From assembly GCA_050014195.1 (NCBI GenBank), contig JBEKDT010000004.1, positions 166,473 through 230,472 on the forward strand: DNA of 64,000 nucleotides, in the 5' to 3' direction. Every line of letters begins with the position of its first letter. Within the stretch, counting starts at the first letter, position 1. Made by a program: the position numbers and the translations under genes. Below are positions 640-39,285 of this stretch, piece after piece. Under the pieces are notes generated by a model that ran no database searches, had not been told where the DNA came from, and worked only from the letters and a program-made list of their open reading frames with translations. Source of the stretch: Desulfomonilia bacterium (GTDB taxonomy: Bacteria > Desulfobacterota > Desulfomonilia > UBA1062).

Positions 640-2604
640 TCACACCTCGATGGCATCCCCTGCGATGAGCTCTTCAACGGTGATCGCCTCGGCCAGGATA
701 GTGCCGATGGTCTTTGAAAAGATTGCCGGGTCGTCCACTTTTGAGCCTTCGGCAATGAGCGCCAGGTCTAAGAGGAGACGGGCATAGTCCTTCAGGAGCG
801 GGTCCTTCCTGTTCTTCTCGAACATGAACTTGATGTTGGACACGGCCGGGTGGTCTATATTGAGCTCGAGGATCCTCTTGGCAGGCTCGGTCTTCTGCCC
901 CGTCGCCTTCATGATCTTCTCCAGATAGGGGCTCATGTCATAGGTCTCGCCGGACAGGCAGGCAAGCGAGTCCTTGAGGTGGGTGGAGGCCTTCACTTCC
1001 TTTACCCTGTCTTTCAGCTCTTCTTTCAGGAATCCGAAGAAGTCGCCAAACTCGTGCTTTTTCTTCTCATCCACCGTGCCGAGGCTGAGGTCGCCCTTTT
1101 CCGCGCTCACGAATTTCTTATTGTCAAATTCCCTCAAGACCTGCACGACAAACTCATCTATGGGGTCTGTCATGAGCACCACCTCAATCCCCTTTTCCTT
1201 GAGGCGCTCCAGATGGGGGCTGTTCAGCAGGGCGGCGGTATTCTCACCGGTGATGTAATAGATTGCATCCTGGTCCGGCTGCATGCGGGAAGTATAATCG
1301 GCCAGCGAGACATATTTTCCATCGGAGTTCGTGGTCTGATACCTCAGGAGCTTCGCAATCCTGTCCCGGTTGTCGTGGTCGGTGGGAATGCCGATCTTCA
1401 TGACGGGTCCGAACTCGGCATAGAATTGGTCATACTTTTCCTTGTCCATGCCCTCGAGGAGGTCGAAGATCCGCTTGATGAGGTTCTTGCGGATGTTGAC
1501 TACCAAGCTGTCCCGCTGGAGGATCTCGCGGCTGATATTGAGGTTCAGGTCAGGGGCATCGACCACGCCCTGAATGAAGCTGAAGTATTCGGGCATGAGT
1601 TCCTTGCAGTCATCCATGATGAACACGCGCTTGCAGTAGAGGTGTATCCCGTGCCTGCGCTCGCGCATGGTAAAGTCGAGCGGCAGCTTGGAGGGGACGT
1701 ACAGCAGGGCATTATATTCAGTCGTGCCTTCGAATTTGATGTGGATGTGCTCCAAGGGCGGGTTCCAGTCATGGCTGATGTGCTTGTAGAACTCGGTGTA
1801 CTCCTCATCGGTGACCTCGACCTTGCTCCTGGCCCAGATGGCCTTCATGGAGTTGAGCGTCTCTTCACGCTTCACCTTCCTGGTCGTCTCGCCGATGGTG
1901 TTCCCGCTGCTATCCTTTAAGAGCTCGGCATCAGGGATCGGCTCGTCGCGCTCCACATCCATAACAATAGGGTAGTTCACAAAGTCGGAATGGCGCTTCA
2001 CCACGCCTCTGATGGTCCATTCGTCGGTATAGTCGGGTTCGTCTTCGAGGCGTTCTTTGAGCTTGAGGGTGACCGACGTGCCCCTACCCTTCTTGGTCGT
2101 CTCTTCGATGGTGTAGGATCCGTCCCCCGTGGATTCCCACTTCGTCGCGCTCGAAGCGCCTGCCGCCTTCGTGATGAGGGTGACGTTCTCCGCCACGATG
2201 AACGAGCTGTAGAACCCCACGCCGAACTGGCCGATGAGCTCGGGCGCGATGCTCTGGCTCTTCTTCATGGTATCGATGGCATCGAGAAAGGCCTTGGTGC
2301 CGCTCTGGGCAATGGTCCCGATGTTTTCCACCACCTCGTCAAAGGTCATGCCGATCCCATTGTCCTCGATAGTGATGGTCCCGGCCTTGCGGTCGGGGAT
2401 AATCCTGATCTTGAATTCGGTGTCTTTCCCTAAGATGTCGGGTTCGGTCTGCGACTTGAACCTAATCTTGTCGATAGCGTCCGAGGCGTTCGAGATGAGC
2501 TCGCGCAAAAAGATCTCGGGATGCGAGTACAGCGAGTTGATGATCAGCTTCAGAACCTTGACGACCTCTGCCTTGAACTGATGTGTCTCTTTCTTATGCT
2601 CCAT
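640..2604 (-). CDS. htpG: Hsp90 chaperone HtpG
   Basis: [35 protein letters not shown] and LNISREILQ motifs; 654 aa. Confidence 0.98.
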
Positions 2605-9814: not shown

Positions 9815-10615
9815 TCACTTTTCCAGTAACGAACGCACCAGATTGTACGTGGAGAACTGGTTATTTGTGAGCTGGGCAAAGGGGTGTTCACCCCCGAATT
9901 CCTGCTGCATGATCTCCTCAACAGTCATACCTGAGCGATAGAGCCTTTGAACCTTTGCTGCAAGGTCCGTGAGGTAGCTGATGCACTGCCCCAGGGCCTT
10001 TCTCCCGTCCTGAACGATCTTTCCCACTGCGGTGAACAGGACGAGCCGTTCGGTTGGAAGCTCGATGACCTTGCGCATGGACTCTATAAGCTGCCCGATA
10101 TTCTCCTCGGGCCTGATAAACTTCGGATTTTCTCTGGCAAAGAGGTCGCCCGTGAAGCACCATCCCTCTGAGGGCTCAAGTAGGCAGATGTGACCCGCAC
10201 AGTGGCCAGGGGTCTCCACGACCCGGAAGGCGTAGTGATCCGTGTTCATGATATCAGGGATGGGTTTTATCGTGGTGGGCACCGGGTAGCCCCAGGCGAT
10301 CTCCTGGTAGGGATAGAGATCGAACCTATGAGCGATCAGGGGGATGGATACCGGGTGTGCATAGATATCCACACCGAAGCGCACCATGATGTCATGATTC
10401 CCGCCCATATGGTCTTCATGATAGTGGGTGTTGACCACCTGATCGAGTCCTTTCCCTTCCAGGAAAGAAGCGAGTTCCTGCGAGGTATGGCTGCACCCGG
10501 TGTCTATGAGGAGCCCGTCCACCAGGTGGGCCGCCACCCAGTAGACAGGCTTTCCGTCGAGTTCCCTGCTCATGCGTATCTGGGTTACCTGCTCAAATTC
10601 TGCTGTCTCTATCAC
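9815..10615 (-). CDS. MBL-fold metallo-hydrolase
   Basis: LIDTG, THYHEDH, TPGH, FTGD motifs. Confidence 0.93.
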   Translation of the reverse strand: MIETAEFEQVTQIRMSRELDGKPVYWVAAHLVDGLLIDTGCSHTSQELASFLEGKGLDQVVNTHYHEDHMGGNHDIMVRFGVDIYAHPVSIPLIAHRFDLYPYQEIAWGYPVPTTIKPIPDIMNTDHYAFRVVETPGHCAGHICLLEPSEGWCFTGDLFARENPKFIRPEENIGQLIESMRKVIELPTERLVLFTAVGKIVQDGRKALGQCISYLTDLAAKVQRLYRSGMTVEEIMQQEFGGEHPFAQLTNNQFSTYNLVRSLLEK

Positions 10616-10658
10616 TGCTTCTCCTCTGATTATGGGTGTCTTTCATTGCTTTTCCTAT

Positions 10659-10676
10659 TAGTTTTGTACCCAACCA
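10659..10676. promoter_or_regulatory. Putative MarR operator upstream of the MBL hydrolase
   Basis: tagttttgtacccaacca resembles the palindrome at 11131-11148. Confidence 0.55.
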
Positions 10677-10699
10677 TAAGGGATGAACAAATGTCCTTG

Positions 10700-11128
10700 C
10701 TAAAGGTTCTTGTAAACCTTCTCTATGAGCCTGAACAACGTCTGCTTCTCTTCCTCGCTGAACCCCTCGAACAGCTTTGTATTCATCTTTTTCGATATCT
10801 GAAACAGGACAGGCCTGAGCTTCTTTGCCTTGGCAGTCAGGGTCAGGTACGTGTAGCGTCCGTCGCTCACATCCTTTTCCTTCATGATATAGCCGCCTGA
10901 CTCCAGTTTGTTGATGACCGAAGAAATCGTCGACTTGTCCTTGATGGTATGTTTTGCAACCTCCTGCAGGGTGACGGTACCCTTCCGGTCAAGGACAAAG
11001 AGGATATCCCCGTAGGAAGGCGCAATGCCGTCTATTTTTTTCTTCGAGAGTTCCTTGCTTAGAAACTTGAAGAGCCGCTGGCGGATGTTAGTGATGATGT
11101 AAAGGAAGTTGGTGTCACTAATCTCCAT
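10700..11128 (-). CDS. MarR-family regulator
   Basis: DKSTISSVINKLESGGYI and DGR motifs; 142 aa. Confidence 0.93.
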   Translation of the reverse strand: MEISDTNFLYIITNIRQRLFKFLSKELSKKKIDGIAPSYGDILFVLDRKGTVTLQEVAKHTIKDKSTISSVINKLESGGYIMKEKDVSDGRYTYLTLTAKAKKLRPVLFQISKKMNTKLFEGFSEEEKQTLFRLIEKVYKNL

Positions 11129-11377: not shown

Positions 11378-11534
11378 ACTTTTAAGCCCCGGCAACCTCT
11401 CTTACCCCCTACATGACTGATTCTTAATGTCATATCATATAATAGGCTCTTGAACAGTTCCCGAGCATGGTATAGGAAGGTGCAGAAATAACAGTCTCTC
11501 CATGATGAATAGAGGGATATACTTACCAGGATCT

Positions 11535-13010
11535 ATGGCACATATCGACACTATTTTCCTCGACCATGCCGCCACAACCCCGGTACACCCGGAGGTGCTG
11601 GGTTTGATGCTGCCCTATTTCGGCAATTACTTCGGCACGCCGTCGAACCCGTTTGGCTTCGGCGATGCCCCGAGGGAGGCCCTTGATAAGGCCCGTTTTC
11701 GCGTCGCTCAGCTCATCGGCGCACAAGGGCATGAAATCATCTTCACCTCTTCGGGCACCGAGGCCAATAACCTGGCCATCCTGGGGGTTGCCTCCGCACG
11801 AAGAGGGTTGAAAAATCATATCATCACAAGCACCATCGAGCATGCCTCGGTGCTGAATACCATACATCATCTCACAGGGACCGGTCTCGAGGTGACGGAA
11901 ATCGGGGTAGATGCACAGGGGGTCGTCGATCCTGCCTCCGTTCAAGCGGCCATTAAGGATGACACCATACTCATCAGCATCATGCATGCAAGCAATGAGA
12001 CCGGATCAATCCAGCCTGTCAGGGAAATCGGGCACATTGCCAAAGACAAAGGTATCACATTCCACTGTGATTGCATCCAGAGCGCGGGCAGGATCGAAGT
12101 CGATGTGAACACTCTGAATGCGGACCTGCTCAGTATCTCCTCTCATAAGCTCTACGGCCCCAAGGGTGTAGGGGCATTGTATGTGAGGGAGGGTACGGCC
12201 ATCTCCCCCATCATCTTCGGGTCGGATCAGGAAAGAGGCCTGAGACCGGGCACCCAAAATATACCCGGTATTGTCGGATTCGGCATGGCCTGCGAGAAGG
12301 CACGAATAGATCTGGATAAGAATGCCCGGCACATCGTACATTTAAGGGATATGTTTGAGAAGGCGCTCCATGAGAGGTTACCGGGCGTCCGGATCAATGA
12401 TAAAGATGCACTGCGCCTCCCCCACATATCGAGCATTTCCTTTGAAGGAGTTCAGGCCGATGCCCTGGCTGCCTGGCTCGACCTGATGGGTATCACGGTC
12501 TCCGCCAGGACACTATTCTACTCGAAGAGGTCGTCTCATGCGCTCTCGGCGCTCCATATCCCCCCTGACCTGGCCTCTGGTACCATCCGGTTCAGTCTGG
12601 GCTGGGAAAACACCGTATTAGAGATCGAAAGGGTAGTTAACACCGTTCAGCAAACCGTCATCCGCCTGAGGGAGTTTGTAGGGGGTTTGGACAATGATGA
12701 ATCCTGCATCGTGACCTTTGCAGCCGGAGATGATTTGGCTCACGCCCTTCGATCTCTGGAAAATGAAGGCATCCCCTGTATAGTCACTGCACGGCCGGTA
12801 GAGTTCGCACATCTGACAGGGACTCGGACAGCGCTGGCCATACCCTGCTCAATGCAGGACGAAGCAGGCAGACTCCTGGGCTCACAAGGCATCAGCATCA
12901 CCGGTATGCACCGCATCAAGGGCCTCTGCAGGCTCAGGGCTGAGAAAGAAGAGCAGTTCTGGAAAACTCTTGGCCGGATCAAAGAAGGGAAGAAACCGAA
13001 TAAATGCTGA
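11535..13010 (+). CDS. IscS/NifS-like PLP enzyme lacking the catalytic Cys, with C-terminal DUF3343-like extension
   Basis: FLDHAATTP, FTSSGTEANN, IEHASV, SSHKLYGPKGVG, RPGTQN, IRFSLG present; SxGSAC loop replaced by SARTLFYS; about 110 extra C-terminal residues. Alternative start 11502. Confidence 0.88.
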   Translation: MAHIDTIFLDHAATTPVHPEVLGLMLPYFGNYFGTPSNPFGFGDAPREALDKARFRVAQLIGAQGHEIIFTSSGTEANNLAILGVASARRGLKNHIITSTIEHASVLNTIHHLTGTGLEVTEIGVDAQGVVDPASVQAAIKDDTILISIMHASNETGSIQPVREIGHIAKDKGITFHCDCIQSAGRIEVDVNTLNADLLSISSHKLYGPKGVGALYVREGTAISPIIFGSDQERGLRPGTQNIPGIVGFGMACEKARIDLDKNARHIVHLRDMFEKALHERLPGVRINDKDALRLPHISSISFEGVQADALAAWLDLMGITVSARTLFYSKRSSHALSALHIPPDLASGTIRFSLGWENTVLEIERVVNTVQQTVIRLREFVGGLDNDESCIVTFAAGDDLAHALRSLENEGIPCIVTARPVEFAHLTGTRTALAIPCSMQDEAGRLLGSQGISITGMHRIKGLCRLRAEKEEQFWKTLGRIKEGKKPNKC

Positions 13011-13111
13011 TGGTCGACCATACGCATCCCTTGGCATTTCCGTTCTTGGTCCGAAGTCCGGCTCGGAACTGGTAACGATCCCAAAAAGGAAAGAGGGTAA
13101 TACAAAGCATT

Positions 13112-14701
13112 ATGCAAAAAAAAGACATTGCACTGCTCATTATGGCACCATTACTCATGTTCGTGGGCGTCTTCGACCATTCACTGTGGACGCCGGATGA
13201 GCCTCGGGTGGCCGAGATCGCCCGCACCATGGCAGTAACCGGGGATTACCTTATACCCCACCTCGCAAAAGATCCCTTCCTCGAGCAACCGCCCCTGTAC
13301 TACGCGGTGACCGGTCTTTTCTGGCACATCTTCGGTACAGGGAATGAGGGCTTCGGAAGGCTCTCCTCGGTCTTTTTTGCCTTGGGCTCGCTGCTGGTGG
13401 TGTTCTTCGGGATGCGATCTCTTTACAGCAGCCAGGCGGCGGCCCTGACATCACTCATACTTGCAACCACGGTCGGTTTCTTTACGATCTCTCACCGGAT
13501 CATTGTCGACAATGCCCTTGCCTTTTTCATCACTGCGGCACTTTTCTCATTCCTCCTGGCCTACCAAGGCATACTCAAGAAGGGTTACCCGCTCTTCTGG
13601 TTATGCCTTGCAGGCGCTTTCCTCATCAAGGGCTTCATCGGGCTTGCCCTCCCCGGCCTTGCCGTTATGCTCTTCGTTCTCTGGCAGAGGGATTTTGCTG
13701 TCATAAAAAGGGCATGGGTGATCCCCGGTATCCTTGTCGTGATCGCGGTCATAGCGGCATGGGGGGTTGTCCTCTATCAAAGAGGGGGAACAGCATTCCT
13801 CTACACCTTCTTCCTCTATAATAACCTCGGGAGGTTCTTGAACGTCGGCGGCATTTATAATGGAGGCCATGTCCAGCCGTTCTACCATTATTTAGGCGTG
13901 ATCTTCTCCGACGGACTGCCCTGGTCGCTGATCCTCTTGCCGGCACTCGTCTTCCTGAAAAGACCCGATGAGAGATTACGGATCTTTTACTGCTGGTTCT
14001 TCGGCGGACTCATCCTCTTGAGCCTCTCTTCCACGAAACGCAACCTCTATTTTCTTCCCATGTACCCCGCCCTGGCGGCCATGGTAGCTGTCTGGATCGA
14101 GAGGACGGCGATACAAGGCGCCTCCCTCTGGGAGCGCCGCTGGCTGTTTGGCGTCGCCACGCTGGTAGGGCTTGCAGGTCTTGGCCTGCCGGTGGCTTAT
14201 GTGAAGATAGGCGGATCATGGCCTGCAGCCATTTTCATGTTTCTCCTGTCCATGGTGCTGCTGTGGGGCTTTTTCAGGTCATTGCCCTTCACCCTATCGG
14301 AGCGTATTGTCTGCAGCTGGGCGGTACTGATCATTGCATGGTCGACACTGATCTTTCCCCAGTTGGACACCCTCAAGACCTACAAACCGTTCTTCCGGGA
14401 GGCAGGCAGGATTGCAGGAAAAGACACGGTCATCGGATACAACCTTAACGAGACCATGCAGGCCTTCAGCCCATTCTACGGCGGATTCCCGGTAGAGAAT
14501 ATCTCTGATCGAAATCAGTTTTCGCAGATTGTTACCACAGGCAAGGCACAGTATGTCTTGTTCCAGCCAAAGAAGAATGATATGGATTTGAGTCATCTCC
14601 TGGAATTAAACGGCCAGAGGCTACTGAAAATAGAAAACCAGGAGAAAAGGCCCACCGAGTTCTGGCGCCTTTCAAGACCTTTACCCGCACAGAAAGGATA
14701 A
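13112..14701 (+). CDS. arnT: ArnT-like GT-C membrane glycosyltransferase (L-Ara4N transferase type)
   Basis: LWTPDEPRVAEIAR, EQPPLYY, KG, TKRNLYFLP motifs; multi-TM; first gene of the arn cluster. Confidence 0.85.
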   Translation: MQKKDIALLIMAPLLMFVGVFDHSLWTPDEPRVAEIARTMAVTGDYLIPHLAKDPFLEQPPLYYAVTGLFWHIFGTGNEGFGRLSSVFFALGSLLVVFFGMRSLYSSQAAALTSLILATTVGFFTISHRIIVDNALAFFITAALFSFLLAYQGILKKGYPLFWLCLAGAFLIKGFIGLALPGLAVMLFVLWQRDFAVIKRAWVIPGILVVIAVIAAWGVVLYQRGGTAFLYTFFLYNNLGRFLNVGGIYNGGHVQPFYHYLGVIFSDGLPWSLILLPALVFLKRPDERLRIFYCWFFGGLILLSLSSTKRNLYFLPMYPALAAMVAVWIERTAIQGASLWERRWLFGVATLVGLAGLGLPVAYVKIGGSWPAAIFMFLLSMVLLWGFFRSLPFTLSERIVCSWAVLIIAWSTLIFPQLDTLKTYKPFFREAGRIAGKDTVIGYNLNETMQAFSPFYGGFPVENISDRNQFSQIVTTGKAQYVLFQPKKNDMDLSHLLELNGQRLLKIENQEKRPTEFWRLSRPLPAQKG

Positions 14702-15828
14702 TGACTATGGCAGACTTCATCCCCATGAGCAGACCATATTTTGGTAACGAAGAAGTCGAGGCGGTGACCGAGGTCATCAAGTCAGGCTGGATCACGACCG
14801 GGCCCAAGTGCGCCCGGTTCGAGGAGGATTTCGCACATTACACGGGCTCGGGGCATGCACTGGCGCTGAGTTCGGGCACGGCAGGCATGCACCTCCTGTT
14901 CAAGGCATTGGGCATCGGAGCGGGCGATGAGGTCATCACCCCTTCCATGACCTTTGCATCCACGGTGAACCAGATTGTACTGGCAGGGGCCAGGCCCGTA
15001 TTCGTTGATGTGGACTACGAGACCCTGCTGGTGAAGCCTCAGGAAATCGAGAAGTGCGTCACCAAGAAAACCAAGGCGGTGATCCCTGTGCACTTCGCAG
15101 GCGCGCCTGCGGACATGGACGCCATAGAAGCCGTATGTGGCAATATCCCGATCATCGAGGATGCGGCCCATGCCGTAGGCACCTTTTACAAGGGCAGGCA
15201 CATCGGATATCGCAACCTGGCCGTATTCTCGTTCCACCCCATCAAGAACATCACCACTGCCGAAGGAGGGATGATCACCGGCGGCTCCAAGGATTTGTTG
15301 GAGAAGCTGAAACTGCTGAAATTCCATGGTATCGAGCGGGACGCCTGGAAGCGCTACGGCAAGGCGTCAGACCCCACCTATGATATTGAAGAGCCGGCGT
15401 TCAAGTACAACATGACGGATATCCAGGCGGCGCTGGGCATCGTACAACTGGCCAAAATTGGGGAGATCAACGCTCATCGGACACGCATCGCCGAACGCTA
15501 TCGGGATGCCCTCTCCCGGGTCAAGGGCCTCGACCTGCCGGGTGTGCCCACCTATGATCACGTCCACTCCTGGCACCTCTTTGTCATTAAGACCCGCACC
15601 GTTGACCGGAAGACCCTCATGCAGGAGCTTGCGGAGCGGGGTATCGGCTACGGCCTCCACTTCCCGGCATGCCATACCTTAAAATATGTCAAGAAACTCT
15701 TCGGGAAGATAGACCTGCCTGAGACCGAGACTGCATCGGAGCGTATCTTGAGCATCCCGCTGTATCCTTCCATGGATGATTCCCAGGTGGAGAGAGTTAT
15801 CACTGCACTCAAGGAGATCTTTCTATGA
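14701..15828 (+). CDS. arnB: DegT/DnrJ aminotransferase ArnB
   Basis: SGWITTGPK, IEDAAHA, FSFHPIKNITTAEGG, FKYNMTDIQAALG; context. Confidence 0.92.
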   Translation: MTMADFIPMSRPYFGNEEVEAVTEVIKSGWITTGPKCARFEEDFAHYTGSGHALALSSGTAGMHLLFKALGIGAGDEVITPSMTFASTVNQIVLAGARPVFVDVDYETLLVKPQEIEKCVTKKTKAVIPVHFAGAPADMDAIEAVCGNIPIIEDAAHAVGTFYKGRHIGYRNLAVFSFHPIKNITTAEGGMITGGSKDLLEKLKLLKFHGIERDAWKRYGKASDPTYDIEEPAFKYNMTDIQAALGIVQLAKIGEINAHRTRIAERYRDALSRVKGLDLPGVPTYDHVHSWHLFVIKTRTVDRKTLMQELAERGIGYGLHFPACHTLKYVKKLFGKIDLPETETASERILSIPLYPSMDDSQVERVITALKEIFL

Positions 15829-15862
15829 AAAGGGCAATCTTTCTGCAGGAGGCTACAAGACC

Positions 15863-16792
15863 ATGAGCCAGGCCAAGATCTCGGTCGTCATACCGGTGTA
15901 TAACGAGGAGAAGGGACTGCCAAAACTCTTCGAGCGCCTGCTGCCGGTGATGGAGGGCATGAATAGGGATTACGAGGTTGTCCTGGTGGATGATGGAAGC
16001 GCTGATGAGTCCCTGAAAATCCTTAAGCACCATGCATCGGAAAGGGTAATCGTCGTGGAACTCTCAAGGAACTACGGCCAGCACTCAGCCATATTCGCCG
16101 GCTTTGAGACGAGTACGGGGGAGATCATCGTCACCATGGATGCAGACCTCCAGAACCCGCCCGAGGAGATCCCCCGGCTGGTGGATGTGATGGAAAAAGG
16201 CAACTACGAGGTAGTGGGTACGGTGAGGATGATGAGGCAGGACACGGCCTTCCGCAAGACGGCGAGCCGGATCGTCAATGCCATCACAAGGCGTATCACG
16301 GGCGTGCAGCTGAACGACTGGGGATGCATGCTCAGGGCTTACAAGAGACACGTGGTGGAGTACATGATTTCGAGCCATGAGCACTCCACCTTCATACCTG
16401 CCCTTGCCACCAGCTTTGCCAAGGATATTGCCGAGATCGAGGTGAAGCACGAAGAGCGCTTTGCAGGTGAGACCAAATATTCGCTTTCAAAGCTTATCTC
16501 TCTGCAATTCGACCTGGTGACATCCTTCTCTGATTTTCCCCTGAAGGCAATGCTCTATACCGGCTTTGTCCTGGCCTTTCTCGGCATCGGCTTCGGCACC
16601 TTTCTTGCGGTGGCCAGGCTTGCCTTCGGTGCCGAGTGGGCGGCACAAGGTATATTCACCCTGTTCGCCATCCTGTTCTTCTTCATCGGCGCACAGTTCC
16701 TGGCCTTTGGCGTTATGGGCGAGTATGTAGGCAGGATCTATAAGGAGGTCAAGCAGCGGCCCCCTTATACCATCAGGAGGATATACCGTTGA
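15863..16792 (+). CDS. arnC: Undecaprenyl-phosphate glycosyltransferase ArnC (GT2)
   Basis: VIPVYNEE, DDGS, RNYGQHSA, MDADLQNPPEEIP, two C-terminal TMs. Confidence 0.92.
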   Translation: MSQAKISVVIPVYNEEKGLPKLFERLLPVMEGMNRDYEVVLVDDGSADESLKILKHHASERVIVVELSRNYGQHSAIFAGFETSTGEIIVTMDADLQNPPEEIPRLVDVMEKGNYEVVGTVRMMRQDTAFRKTASRIVNAITRRITGVQLNDWGCMLRAYKRHVVEYMISSHEHSTFIPALATSFAKDIAEIEVKHEERFAGETKYSLSKLISLQFDLVTSFSDFPLKAMLYTGFVLAFLGIGFGTFLAVARLAFGAEWAAQGIFTLFAILFFFIGAQFLAFGVMGEYVGRIYKEVKQRPPYTIRRIYR

Positions 16793-17703
16793 AGGCCCTT
16801 GTGTTTGCCTACCACAACATGGGCATTATCGGCATCAAGAGACTTAAGGAAGCGGGTTTTGAGATACCGCTCGTGTTCTCCCATGAAGACGACCCGAACG
16901 AGAACGTGTGGTTCGGCTCCGTACCGGGGCTCTGCCGGGAGCTTGCCATCCCGTGCGTCTGCCCAAGGGACCCCAACCAGTATGGATGGATCGAGCGGAT
17001 CAAGGCGGCAAAGCCGGACATCATTTTCAGTTTCTATTATCGGTTTATGCTTAAAAGCGCGATCCTTTCCATCCCGCCGCTGGGCGCCTACAACCTTCAC
17101 GGTTCATATCTCCCGCAGTATCGCGGCCGGTGCCCGGTAAACTGGGTCATCATCAACGGGGAGCATACCACCGGTGTGACGCTCCACGAAATGGAGGAAA
17201 AGCCCGATGCCGGCGCCATCGTGACCCAGAAGACGGTCGAGATCTCCCGGGAGGACACGGCCCTGACTCTCTACAAAAAACTCGAACAGGCTGCTGATGT
17301 CATGCTTGCCGAGATCCTCCCGCACATGATTATCGGCGACATTAAAAAGATACCTATGGACCTATCCAAAGGCTCGTACTATGGCGGCAGAAAGCCTGAA
17401 GACGGCCGCATCTTCTGGGACAGGCCCGCCGAGGAGATCTATAACCTTATCCGTGCCGTCACCAGGCCCTACCCCGGCGCCTTCGGCTTTATCGGCGATG
17501 AGATGGTCACCTTCTGGTGGGCTGAGCCGGCGAACGACATTCAACTGGAGCCGGGCAAGATCGTTTTTCAGGAAGATACTATTTTGATAGGCACCGGTTA
17601 CGGATGTATAAGGCCGCTTGAGATAGAGGTAAACGGCAGGGTCCTGAAGGACTTGAGCCTTCATACCTATTTAAAAGACCACGAAGGAGAAATCGTACAA
17701 TGA
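16789..17703 (+). CDS. Stand-alone ArnA formyltransferase domain
   Basis: FAYHNMG, FSFYYR, NLHGSYLPQYRG, DAG, RAVTRPYPGAF; TTG start overlapping arnC stop. Confidence 0.9.
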   Translation: MKALVFAYHNMGIIGIKRLKEAGFEIPLVFSHEDDPNENVWFGSVPGLCRELAIPCVCPRDPNQYGWIERIKAAKPDIIFSFYYRFMLKSAILSIPPLGAYNLHGSYLPQYRGRCPVNWVIINGEHTTGVTLHEMEEKPDAGAIVTQKTVEISREDTALTLYKKLEQAADVMLAEILPHMIIGDIKKIPMDLSKGSYYGGRKPEDGRIFWDRPAEEIYNLIRAVTRPYPGAFGFIGDEMVTFWWAEPANDIQLEPGKIVFQEDTILIGTGYGCIRPLEIEVNGRVLKDLSLHTYLKDHEGEIVQ

Positions 17704-18731
17704 AGGTACTCATTCTGGGCGTGAACGGATTCATCGGCTCGCACCTGAGCGAACGTATCATGAAAGAAACGGACTGGAACGTCTATGGCATGGATCTGGG
17801 CGACAACAAGCTCAGGGCCGTGATCAGCAACGATCGGTTCCACTTCATCGAGGGTGACATCGCGATTAACAAGGAGTGGATCGAGTACCACATCAAAAAG
17901 TGCGACGTGGTCCTGCCGCTCGTGGCCATCGCCACACCAAAGACCTACGTGGAGAGGCCCTTGAGCGTGTTCGAGCTGGACTTTGAGGAGAACTTGCGGA
18001 TCATCCGCCAGTGCGTGAAATACGGCAAGCGGGTGATCTTCCCCTCCACCTCGGAGGTATACGGCATGAGCACAGACGAGGCCTTTGACGAATATTCATC
18101 ACCGCTCGTGCTGGGTCCCATCCCCATGCAGCGGTGGATCTACTCATGCTCGAAACAGCTTTTAGACAGGGTTATCTGGGCCTACGGCTCCCGGGGTGAG
18201 CTTGACTTCACGTTGATAAGGCCCTTCAACTGGATCGGACCACGCCTGGATTCCCTGGAGACGGCTAAAGAGGGTTCCTCCAGGGTCGTCACCCAGTTCA
18301 TTGCATCCCTTGTGTTCAAAACCGCAATCGCCCTGGTGGACGGCGGCATGCAGAGCAGGTCCTTCACCTATATAGACGACGGGATCGCCGCACTCATGAA
18401 GATCCTGCACAACGAAGGCGGCAAGGCGAGCGGCCAGATCTTCAACATCGGCAACCCTGCCAACAACCTCACCATCAAGGACCTGGCCCACAAGCTCCTT
18501 GAGATGTTCAAACAGCACCCCAGCCATAAGAAGGACAAGACCTTTTCCGAGATCATCATCAAGCCTTCAGGGGAATTCTATGGAAAGGGATACCAGGACA
18601 TCCAGACCAGGGTCCCTTCCATTAAGAATGCCATGACCAGGCTCGGCTGGAAACCCGAAGTGAGTCTCGATGAGGCCCTCAAGCGGACGCTTGACAGCTT
18701 CCTTGAAGAGATAGAAAGCAGCAATGACTGA
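17700..18731 (+). CDS. arnA: Stand-alone ArnA UDP-GlcA dehydrogenase/decarboxylase domain
   Basis: GVNGFIG, PLVAIATP, FELDFEENL, STSEVYG, RWIYSCSK, RPFNWIGP. Confidence 0.93.
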   Translation: MKVLILGVNGFIGSHLSERIMKETDWNVYGMDLGDNKLRAVISNDRFHFIEGDIAINKEWIEYHIKKCDVVLPLVAIATPKTYVERPLSVFELDFEENLRIIRQCVKYGKRVIFPSTSEVYGMSTDEAFDEYSSPLVLGPIPMQRWIYSCSKQLLDRVIWAYGSRGELDFTLIRPFNWIGPRLDSLETAKEGSSRVVTQFIASLVFKTAIALVDGGMQSRSFTYIDDGIAALMKILHNEGGKASGQIFNIGNPANNLTIKDLAHKLLEMFKQHPSHKKDKTFSEIIIKPSGEFYGKGYQDIQTRVPSIKNAMTRLGWKPEVSLDEALKRTLDSFLEEIESSND

Positions 18732-19578
18732 TCTGGCCCTCAAGGTGGACGTGGACACCTTCCGGGGCATGAAGGAAGGTGTGCCCGCCTTGGCGGCTAT
18801 TCTAGGCGAATTCAACCTTCAGGCGAGCTTCTTCATCAGCTACGGTCCGGACAGGTCGGGCCTGGCCATGCTGCAGCTCCTCCGGCCCTCATTCTTGAAA
18901 AAGATGATCCGCACGAATGCACCCGGACTCTATGGGTGGAAGACCGCGCTCTACGGCACCCTGCTTCCAGCACCCATGATCGGCACTGCCTTTCCGGAAG
19001 TGATCAGGGGGCTCATGAAGGCCGGCCACGAGATCGCCTGCCATGCCTGGGACCACCGTATCTGGCAGGATTGGCTCTTTCTTATGAGCCGGTCATCCAT
19101 TGAGACATGGTTTCAGAAGATGGTCGATGCACACAAAGGGGTTACAGGCTTGCAGCCCAAGGCCTTCGGCGCGCCCAGCTGGATGATGGACCCTCGATCA
19201 CTGAAGGTCGTTACCGCTTATAATCTTTCATACCTGAGCTGTACCCGTGCCTCAGCGCCGTTTGTCTTTGCGGAGAATTCCATGCTGGAGATCCCTTCGA
19301 ACCTGCCGTGTATCGAGGAAGTCGGCGTTCAGGACGTGACAGCGTCCATCAAAGAGAAGGCCGGAAGCCCTGTTCCCCAGGTCCTGCCCGTCCATGCCGA
19401 GGTGGAGGGCATGGTGTACCAGAGGCAATTCAGAGACATGCTGGAGTCTGCCCTTTCACTGGGATTTACCATACGTCCGTTACAGCATATTGCATCGGAT
19501 CTTGAAAAGGGTAGGCTCCCAATACGCCCTCTCACCATGGGCCTGATCCCCGGCAGGGCCTTCCGCTGCGCGGTGTAA
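18724..19578 (+). CDS. arnD: Deformylase ArnD (polysaccharide deacetylase fold)
   Basis: LKVDVDT, GPDRSG, YGTLLPAP, HAWDH, HAEVEG. Confidence 0.9.
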   Translation: MTDLALKVDVDTFRGMKEGVPALAAILGEFNLQASFFISYGPDRSGLAMLQLLRPSFLKKMIRTNAPGLYGWKTALYGTLLPAPMIGTAFPEVIRGLMKAGHEIACHAWDHRIWQDWLFLMSRSSIETWFQKMVDAHKGVTGLQPKAFGAPSWMMDPRSLKVVTAYNLSYLSCTRASAPFVFAENSMLEIPSNLPCIEEVGVQDVTASIKEKAGSPVPQVLPVHAEVEGMVYQRQFRDMLESALSLGFTIRPLQHIASDLEKGRLPIRPLTMGLIPGRAFRCAV

Positions 19579-39209: not shown

Positions 39210-39285
39210 TGGCTGGGACGGATGGATTCGAACCACCATCAAAGAGATCCAGAATCTCGGGTCCTGCCAGTTAGACGACATCCCA
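39210..39285 (-). tRNA. trnQ: tRNA-Gln (anticodon CTG)
   Basis: Minus strand TGGGATG...CGTCCCA-GCCA acceptor stem, anticodon loop TT-CTG-GA, T-loop TTCGAAT, encoded CCA. Confidence 0.93.

Follow-up and report, generated by a model that had tools for sequence, protein, structure and literature searches.

A 64,000-nt stretch of a Desulfomonilia bacterium genome (assembly GCA_050014195.1, contig JBEKDT010000004.1, forward-strand positions 166,473 to 230,472; hereafter the window) encodes at 11535..13010 (+) a 491-aa protein in which a NifS-type pyridoxal 5'-phosphate (PLP) domain is followed by a DUF3343-like domain and a C-terminal helix with an invariant Phe-Trp pair (FW helix). Its PLP site is intact, and both the persulfide-forming cysteine of the PLP domain and the invariant cysteine of stand-alone DUF3343 proteins are absent. 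We tentatively propose, with a probability of roughly 0.4, that the protein is a lineage-restricted and derived PLP beta-lyase, which would still be catalytic without an enzyme persulfide and whose cysteine-rich tail would capture the product. The original prediction for this gene, made from the letters of the window, described a NifS/IscS homologue lacking the loop Cys and fused to a second domain, and suggested a selenium-specific enzyme. The description was upheld, the protein being a type I homologue with its PLP residues in place, and the selenium specificity was not supported. All positions given are those of the window and residue numbering follows the 491-aa form throughout.

Domain architecture of the fused protein

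The longest open reading frame (ORF) at this location spans 11502..13010 (+) and encodes 502 aa from an upstream in-frame ATG at 11502; the 491-aa start at 11535, corresponding to the second Met, was chosen because homologues begin there. An AlphaFold2 (AF2) model of the full-length protein had a predicted local distance difference test score (pLDDT) of 87.7 and a predicted template modelling score (pTM) of 0.86. The gene sequence is real and not an assembly artefact. A 2.3-kb stretch was present in 24 public runs from 23 studies of peat and wetland metagenomes, with no RNA run among them, and over the interval 11400-13200 contigs from four runs that carried no flag as a possible source showed zero differing letters and zero indels, one of these contigs covering 11400-12755 and another 11661-13200.

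The class-V aminotransferase (NifS/IscS type I) PLP domain comprises residues 7-367 (11553..12635, +), based on PF00266 and Foldseek. PF00266 matched residues 18-378 with an E-value of 2e-75, and Foldseek recovered NFS1, IscS and NifS at a template modelling (TM) score of ~0.9 over ~380 residues with 36-40% identity. The Schiff-base Lys K205 (12147-12149, +) lies within the motif SSHKLYGPKG, which is present in full as originally read, and the class-V fold and PLP residues K205, H204, D179, Q182 and H103 are all found in the window protein. The best NCBIfam model was NifS (TIGR03402), at 426.8 bits under an equivalog cut-off of 530.75; the IscS model TIGR02006 scored 340.2 bits, under its cut-off of 643.2, and the SclA model NF040779 122.2 bits versus a cut-off of 525, the RXGXHCA motif of group II being absent. 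Each of T75, H103, D179, Q182, H204, K205 and R352 is conserved in at least 59 of the 61 Cys-less homologues described below, including R352 and H103, which are typical for binding a cysteine-like amino acid. A number of active-site-shell positions are altered alongside the Cys loss (N35, G73, D78, A105 and G230). Other invariants are specific to the fusion (H297, E275, E358 in GWEN, N263, P421, L448 and F475-W476), and position 32, mostly His in fused proteins, is Tyr in the window.

The persulfide loop is reduced to the remnant SARTLFYS (12501..12524, +), in which Phe328 occupies the catalytic Cys column and two residues are deleted. The original prediction had placed a shortened loop without Cys, TGA or frameshift at about 12489-12540, and this reading was confirmed: the window has VSARTLFYS--KRSS where unfused relatives have SSGSACTS or SAGSAC, with Cys, TGA and frameshift all absent. 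The group I consensus SSGSAC(T/S), from which the window loop departs, contains the catalytic persulfide-forming Cys (bioRxiv 10.1101/2020.02.07.939272). The loop-column Cys is present in 15/15 unfused and 15/15 basal fused proteins and in 0/61 members of the Cys-less clade. Directly after the catalytic His103, the window has Ala104 (11844..11846, +), the equivalent of D146 in human selenocysteine lyase (hSCL). This position is described as Lys in non-specific group-I and His in group-II enzymes, and is thought to control protonation of the catalytic Cys (PMC3266904). Among the proteins compared here it is His in all 15 loop-Cys fused and 11 of 15 unfused members, whereas none of the 61 Cys-less members has either His or Lys there.

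The tail begins with ESCIVTF, and profile homology together with the predicted fold assigns residues ~389-462 (12699..12920, +) to a DUF3343 (Se_S_carrier)-like ferredoxin-fold domain. Whereas stand-alone DUF3343 proteins are small, at ~80-100 aa (PMC5322559), this one forms a C-terminal extension of a 385-residue PLP domain. On the window protein alone, PF11823 matched residues 391-460 (profile positions 2-69 of 69) with an E-value of 0.04 and 13.8 bits, below the cut-off of 25; across the family, 56 of 71 fused homologues, scanned singly, matched at E<=0.1, the best at 1e-8. A profile comparison of the tail family with 16 stand-alone DUF3343 proteins using hhalign gave 99.1% probability (E 6.5e-19, 81 columns) and is partly circular, the 16 proteins having been found with the tail profile, which does not apply to the Pfam counts. 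The genome's own stand-alone DUF3343 scored 65.5 bits on PF11823, independently of the tail profile, and the latter picked out small ORFs standing alone in 138 of the 401 phylum genomes, among them the DUF3343 gene of this genome. These profile matches identify the tail as a DUF3343 homologue at the family level. The Cys of the DUF3343 CG motif (LSSDCG, in the beta2-beta3 loop) is invariant in 16/16 stand-alone proteins, and the window reads TGTRT in its place. The hidden Markov model (HMM) scan suggested with the original prediction was therefore clear for PF00266 and, for DUF3343, weak on the window alone and firm across the fused family; the tail it had likened by eye to a DUF3343 domain without a CG motif, but with other cysteines remaining, proved to be just that, C391, C415, C438 and C465 being conserved in the window's clade.

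AlphaFold models of the tail show a beta-alpha-beta-beta-alpha-beta domain followed by a helix, with a pLDDT of 86.2 for the tail alone. Searches of Protein Data Bank (PDB) sequences with the tail profile and the genome's own DUF3343 returned nothing below an E-value of 0.05, and a Foldseek search of the tail model against the PDB returned nothing at E<=0.001. The wide VIA-align search of the tail model had a best Z of 7.9 (PmtCD basket domain, YebC, UreE and HMA domains), which is in the range of common arrangements. As modelled, the tail fold is generic ferredoxin-like, and the fold searches found no solved DUF3343 relative. The protein ends in a C-terminal helix with the invariant F475-W476 (EKEEQFWKTLGRIKEGKK), followed by the stop codon (12942..13010, +; alignments A3 and A4). 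This helix spans residues 470-483 in the models and has low pLDDT in the full-length model.

Distribution and order of cysteine losses

Fused forms account for 81 of the best 120 homologues listed from a word-index search, with lengths of 460-514 aa and identities down to 43%. Database sources name these fused homologues 'cysteine desulfurase', an annotation for which caution is warranted. At E<=1e-12, the fusion was found in the window's genome and 38 of 51 other genomes of its GTDB family, and in none of the 70 genomes from the one other family that the class contains. Among 401 genomes sampled from the phylum, frames of ~490-518 aa were confined to the window's family. A search with the tail profile of 1.84 billion cluster representatives recovered 145 proteins, including three near-full-length fusions.

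A maximum likelihood tree was inferred from the PLP-domain columns of 91 rows, with loop and tail columns removed, and rooted on 15 unfused NifS. The loop-Cys fusions (15 rows) are basal and paraphyletic in this tree, and all Cys-less fusions form a single clade comprising 61 of the 76 fused rows with a support of 100/99. Within it, the window's clade (26 rows, 99/97; hereafter clade C) carries the 2-residue deletion. This topology indicates a single loss of the loop Cys and of the His that follows the catalytic one. Conservation of the Cys-less loop and of the fusion had been proposed as a check on the original prediction. Since both are conserved, the loop being shared by the whole clade and identical in independent contigs, assembly error or decay is ruled out as its cause.

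A second, quicker tree of 104 rows, which included genome-derived members and used only the Shimodaira-Hasegawa-like approximate likelihood ratio test (SH-aLRT) for support, has G345, G482 and the second G465 copy (C186) as its three deepest fused branches; the root is set by the outgroup, and support for the deepest nodes is moderate (95*, 88, 93 and 96*). These three proteins and the fragment P0137 each combine the loop Cys with a Cys at the CG position of DUF3343 (carrier Cys). The G465 genome (L098, L109) encodes two fused copies, both with the loop Cys and one with the carrier-loop Cys. The carrier Cys is found in 21 of 35 members of clade B, which lacks the loop Cys, and in 0 of 28 members of clade C in this tree. 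The most economical reading of the order of losses starts from a desulfurase fused to an acceptor and has four steps. The ancestor would have been a cysteine desulfurase carrying a DUF3343 acceptor of its own in the same chain, with the donor Cys on a mobile loop and the acceptor Cys on the carrier loop. The acceptor Cys would then have been lost in some lineages, the donor Cys in one lineage and, finally, the acceptor Cys also in the window's clade.

Cysteines were gained along the same series, with a median tail count of one in basal fused members, three in clade B and four in clade C. Within clade C, C391 (at 12705, +) is present in 26/26 members, C465 (12927-12929) in 25/26, C438 in 24/26 and C415 in 20/26, and all four co-occur in 20/26; C415 and C438 lie within the DUF3343-like domain and C465 just past it. 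Predicted secondary structure places C391 near the beginning of strand 1, C415 and C438 immediately before strand 2 and after strand 3, respectively, and C465 three residues past strand 4. A ferredoxin-like fold has the antiparallel strand order 4-1-3-2, so that the four tail cysteines should share one sheet edge, opposite the canonical DUF3343 Cys loop. The PLP domain also has clade-specific cysteines on either side of the PLP-binding Asp (C178-D179-C180; 12066..12074, +), with C178 in 24/26 and C180 in 17/26 clade C members and neither in the 15 unfused or 15 basal fused proteins. A further residue, C253 (12291..12293, +), is invariant in the fused proteins (76/76 versus 3/15 unfused). Together, the conserved cysteine columns hold seven of the eight cysteines of the window protein.

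By its conserved residues and the substitution rates, the PLP and substrate site is under purifying selection: the ratio of nonsynonymous to synonymous substitution rates (dN/dS) was 0.22 against the orthologue in G494 (dS 0.147, dN 0.033). G494 is the closest relative, with 94% nucleotide identity and the same synteny.

Proposed function of the fused enzyme

Based on these features, we suggest that the window's enzyme would still bind an L-cysteine-like amino acid and would cleave its C-beta-chalcogen bond without an enzyme persulfide, acting as a Cys-independent beta-lyase. Candidate substrates are those with a leaving group that departs without nucleophilic attack, namely selenocysteine (Sec), cysteine persulfide, cystine-type disulfides and cysteine sulfinate. 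The fused domain, rich in cysteines, would then take up the sulfur or selenium species set free. It is conceivable, but improbable in our estimate, that C391, C415, C438 and C465, possibly with C253 or C178/C180, form a metal, Fe-S or selenotrisulfide/polysulfide-type site that receives the chalcogen from the persulfide-free PLP centre. If true, such a chalcogen-receiving Cys site would represent a new type of sulfur/selenium mobilisation, having evolved stepwise from a fused desulfurase-carrier with intermediates alive in sister genera.

Several observations weigh against a catalytic lyase with a product-capturing tail. The G494 copy (G494:C13, L085:7875-9351) has a 1-nt insertion, either a real frameshift or an error in the metagenome-assembled genome (MAG), that splits it into ORFs of 261 and 241 aa. 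In G492 (G492:C13, L078:1771-1773), a TGA occurs exactly at the C465 column, and the frame beyond it continues for 18 codons with a recognisable C-terminal helix in which FW has become FP. The distant member P0249 (468 aa) has SSPQLGGPRG as its PLP motif, without the His-Lys pair, and also lacks the FW helix and the EH belonging to the catalytic His motif, so that it could be either a pseudoenzyme or a copy in decay. Some lineages can thus do without the gene or are losing it. That the four tail cysteines share one edge derives from predicted secondary structure and textbook strand order, and clades B and C have different tail cysteines, which speaks against a single fixed role in catalysis. 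Near the cofactor, N154 and T240 are variable within the Cys-less clades. Docking of the tail on the PLP domain (contact agreement of at least 70%, partner pLDDT 71-72) was rated as weak support, with an interaction score (ipSAE) of 0.51 versus 0.00 for the best control. In the calibration of this score, 58 of 80 solved complexes attained the mark, as did 2 of 110 mismatched pairs, and those attaining it with a score of <=0.60 were only seven of the 80 complexes and both mismatches. Gene neighbours are conserved no further than the genus level and provide no functional hint.

In-frame TGA codons were seen in two relatives. The hairpin downstream of the G492 TGA folded no better than shuffled sequences (z -0.83) and the FW pair is degraded, and this TGA is probably a nonsense mutation; the one in the G488 match is simply a stop codon.

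A dedicated Sec lyase and carrier, in which selenide would be eliminated from Sec at the Cys-less PLP site and passed on to SelD by the tail, is in our judgement unlikely. The host is a Sec user, as had been supposed, its genome encoding SelA and a SelD with an in-frame TGA. Mihara and colleagues reportedly found in 2000 that E. coli NifS homologues still act as Sec lyases after a change of the Cys to Ala, and the chemical argument that Sec requires no nucleophile draws on this result. Position 104 is Asp in three of 26 clade C members, as in the Sec-specific human SCL (PMC3266904), but the window has Ala at this position and lacks the carrier Cys, and the basal members of the fusion family are complete cysteine desulfurases by sequence. 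Lin et al. report no selenium-specific DUF3343 subfamily and find DUF3343 also in organisms lacking SelD (PMC5322559). We compared 39 loci (38 relatives and the window) by all-against-all BLAST; the fused gene was called in 35 of these, and no selenium or Fe-S assembly gene neighbours it in any of the 35.

The wider genomic context likewise argues against selenium specificity. SelD was detected in 111 of 122 genomes of the class, including 44/51 in the family that has the fusion and 66/70 in its sister family, in which none of the 70 genomes has it. Several genomes of the fusion-bearing family have SelD without the fusion, and the four with the fusion and no SelD match have completeness estimates of 77-91%. 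As SelD is near-universal with or without the fusion, its co-occurrence, which had been suggested as a check, does not discriminate. Class-wide, nearly all SelD genes carry one in-frame TGA, and SelD is itself a selenoprotein in both families. The same genome has a separate cluster on contig C21 (G000, L012:3323-5357) comprising a SclA-like/TIGR01977 lyase (478.4 bits on TIGR01977, cut-off 377; 391.7 bits on the SclA model; GLHCAP motif), YedF (215 bits) and a stand-alone DUF3343 with SSDCGVC. It also encodes ordinary loop-Cys type I enzymes, namely a NifS on C24, a NifS-like protein on C5 and an IscS-like protein on C1. Two simple TGA read-through scans failed to locate the selenoprotein that the original prediction placed at a distance of 11 kb. 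The sole long candidate, at 640-2604 (-), is the gene for HtpG (Hsp90), whose 50-codon upstream in-frame TGA extension looks spurious. Taken together, selenium specificity is not supported, and Sec-lyase activity is chemically possible; the protein may also, as the original prediction alternatively had it, be a PLP enzyme with a new substrate.

It is also doubtful that the protein is still a cysteine desulfurase whose nucleophile has moved to C180 or C178, to a tail Cys of the same or a partner subunit, or to a partner protein. Retention of the carrier-loop Cys by 21 of the 35 clade B members fits a takeover by the in-cis acceptor, and this Cys sits on a 12-residue loop of lower pLDDT. The number of tail cysteines rises with the loss of the loop Cys, C178 and C180 arise only in Cys-less lineages, and C253 is invariant in all 76 fused proteins. 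However, none of the 28 clade C members has the carrier-loop Cys, and the predicted position of the four tail cysteines is the edge of the sheet facing away from that loop. All 61 Cys-less members have lost the His following the catalytic one, a residue that should tune a nucleophilic Cys, and C180 is found in only 17 of 26. We know of no enzyme in which the Cys of a separate domain directly attacks the PLP-cysteine adduct.

The genes surrounding the fused gene raise the possibility, which we consider very unlikely, of other PLP chemistry unrelated to sulfur or selenium mobilisation and perhaps tied to the modification of lipid A with 4-amino-4-deoxy-L-arabinose (L-Ara4N). A complete arn-like set for this modification, in the order arnT-B-C-A(N)-A(C)-D, lies directly downstream in the window (13112-19578, +) and comprises PMT/ArnT-like, DegT/ArnB-like, GT2/ArnC-like, ArnA-type formyltransferase, NAD-dependent epimerase/dehydratase and polysaccharide deacetylase genes. 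In the window, G494 and G492, arnT and the arn genes follow the fused gene on the same strand, with a gap to arnT of 101 bp in the window. In five further clade C loci, the ArnA-type formyltransferase is the only one of these genes to follow the fused gene, and does so directly. The altered active-site shell accompanying the Cys loss would fit a change of chemistry, but R352 and H103 are retained and the arn link is confined to the window's clade. The recurrent neighbours elsewhere are recC/recB, a flavodoxin-like gene and a PhoU-like (PhoU_div) gene. To our knowledge, no class-V enzyme belongs to the arn pathway. We give still less credence to a dead or decaying paralogue serving as pseudoenzyme, scaffold or regulator, for which the loss of both relay cysteines, the frameshifted G494, TGA-truncated G492 and PLP-Lys-less P0249 copies and the 13 of 51 family genomes showing no copy would speak, but not the dN/dS of 0.22, the PLP and substrate residues kept in at least 59/61 members of a clade with long internal branches, the conservation of the new cysteines or the recurrence of the identical sequence in many peat and wetland assemblies.

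Upstream of the fused gene and divergent from it are a MarR-family regulator and a metallo-beta-lactamase-fold protein with weak likeness to glyoxalase II (9815-11128, -); the MarR gene is again present, alone or with its partner, only in G494, G488 and G115. An Rfam scan of the window at the gathering threshold detected no riboswitch or other element upstream of the fused gene, and the single Rfam match in the whole window was a tRNA at 39213-39285 (-).

Comparison with known systems

The fusion physically links DUF3343, a widespread and suspected sulfur/selenium carrier, to a NifS-type PLP enzyme and thereby provides a gene-fusion argument for a functional link between the two. In the deepest members, the fused-domain Cys stands beside a complete desulfurase, which is the clearest sequence-level argument so far for DUF3343 as a persulfide/perselenide acceptor. 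A single family thus represents a living series from members with both donor and acceptor Cys, through members with the acceptor only, to members with neither and with new cysteines. This three-stage series offers a direct experimental handle on how a desulfurase dispenses with its catalytic Cys and on the replacement chemistry. No description of the fusion or of a Cys-less type I NifS clade was found in the passages of the literature searched; in PMC5322559, 'fusion' appears solely as a STRING method term.

The type I (group I) enzymes NifS, IscS and NFS1 share with the window protein the fold, the PLP Lys motif, the catalytic His, the PLP Asp and the substrate Arg. Unlike them, the window protein lacks the loop Cys and the His following the catalytic His, has a loop two residues shorter, and carries the additional DUF3343-like domain and FW helix. 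The basal fused members resemble the donor-acceptor Cys relays of the SufS-SufE/SufU, CsdA-CsdE and IscS-IscU/TusA pairs brought together in one chain; in contrast to these two-component systems, the acceptor here is a DUF3343 domain, and the window's clade has neither relay Cys. A NifS-like domain fused to an acceptor domain also occurs in the molybdenum cofactor (Moco) sulfurase ABA3/MOCOS.

The stand-alone DUF3343 proteins encoded beside a SclA-type lyase and YedF (Lin et al. 2015, PMC5322559) are homologous to the tail and likewise pair a PLP lyase/desulfurase with DUF3343. The partner in the window is type I rather than the type II SclA, is fused, and is joined to a domain without the invariant Cys but with four further cysteines that are conserved. 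Selenocysteine lyases, both bacterial SclA (group II) and animal SCLY (group I), have the same class-V fold, and rat and human SCL were structural matches with a TM of ~0.86. Unlike the window protein, these lyases keep the catalytic Cys, described as C341 in SclA and C388 in hSCL (bioRxiv 10.1101/2020.02.07.939272, PMC3266904). The proposed beta-lyase chemistry has a precedent in C-DES of Synechocystis, an L-cyst(e)ine C-S lyase that frees sulfur with no persulfide formed on the enzyme and yields pyruvate, ammonia and sulfide or cysteine persulfide (PMC8300815). By its description, C-DES is also a NifS-like PLP enzyme without the conserved active-site Cys (PMC8300815). It is, however, a monomer without a fused carrier (PMC8300815), whereas the window protein descends from type I NifS within one family.

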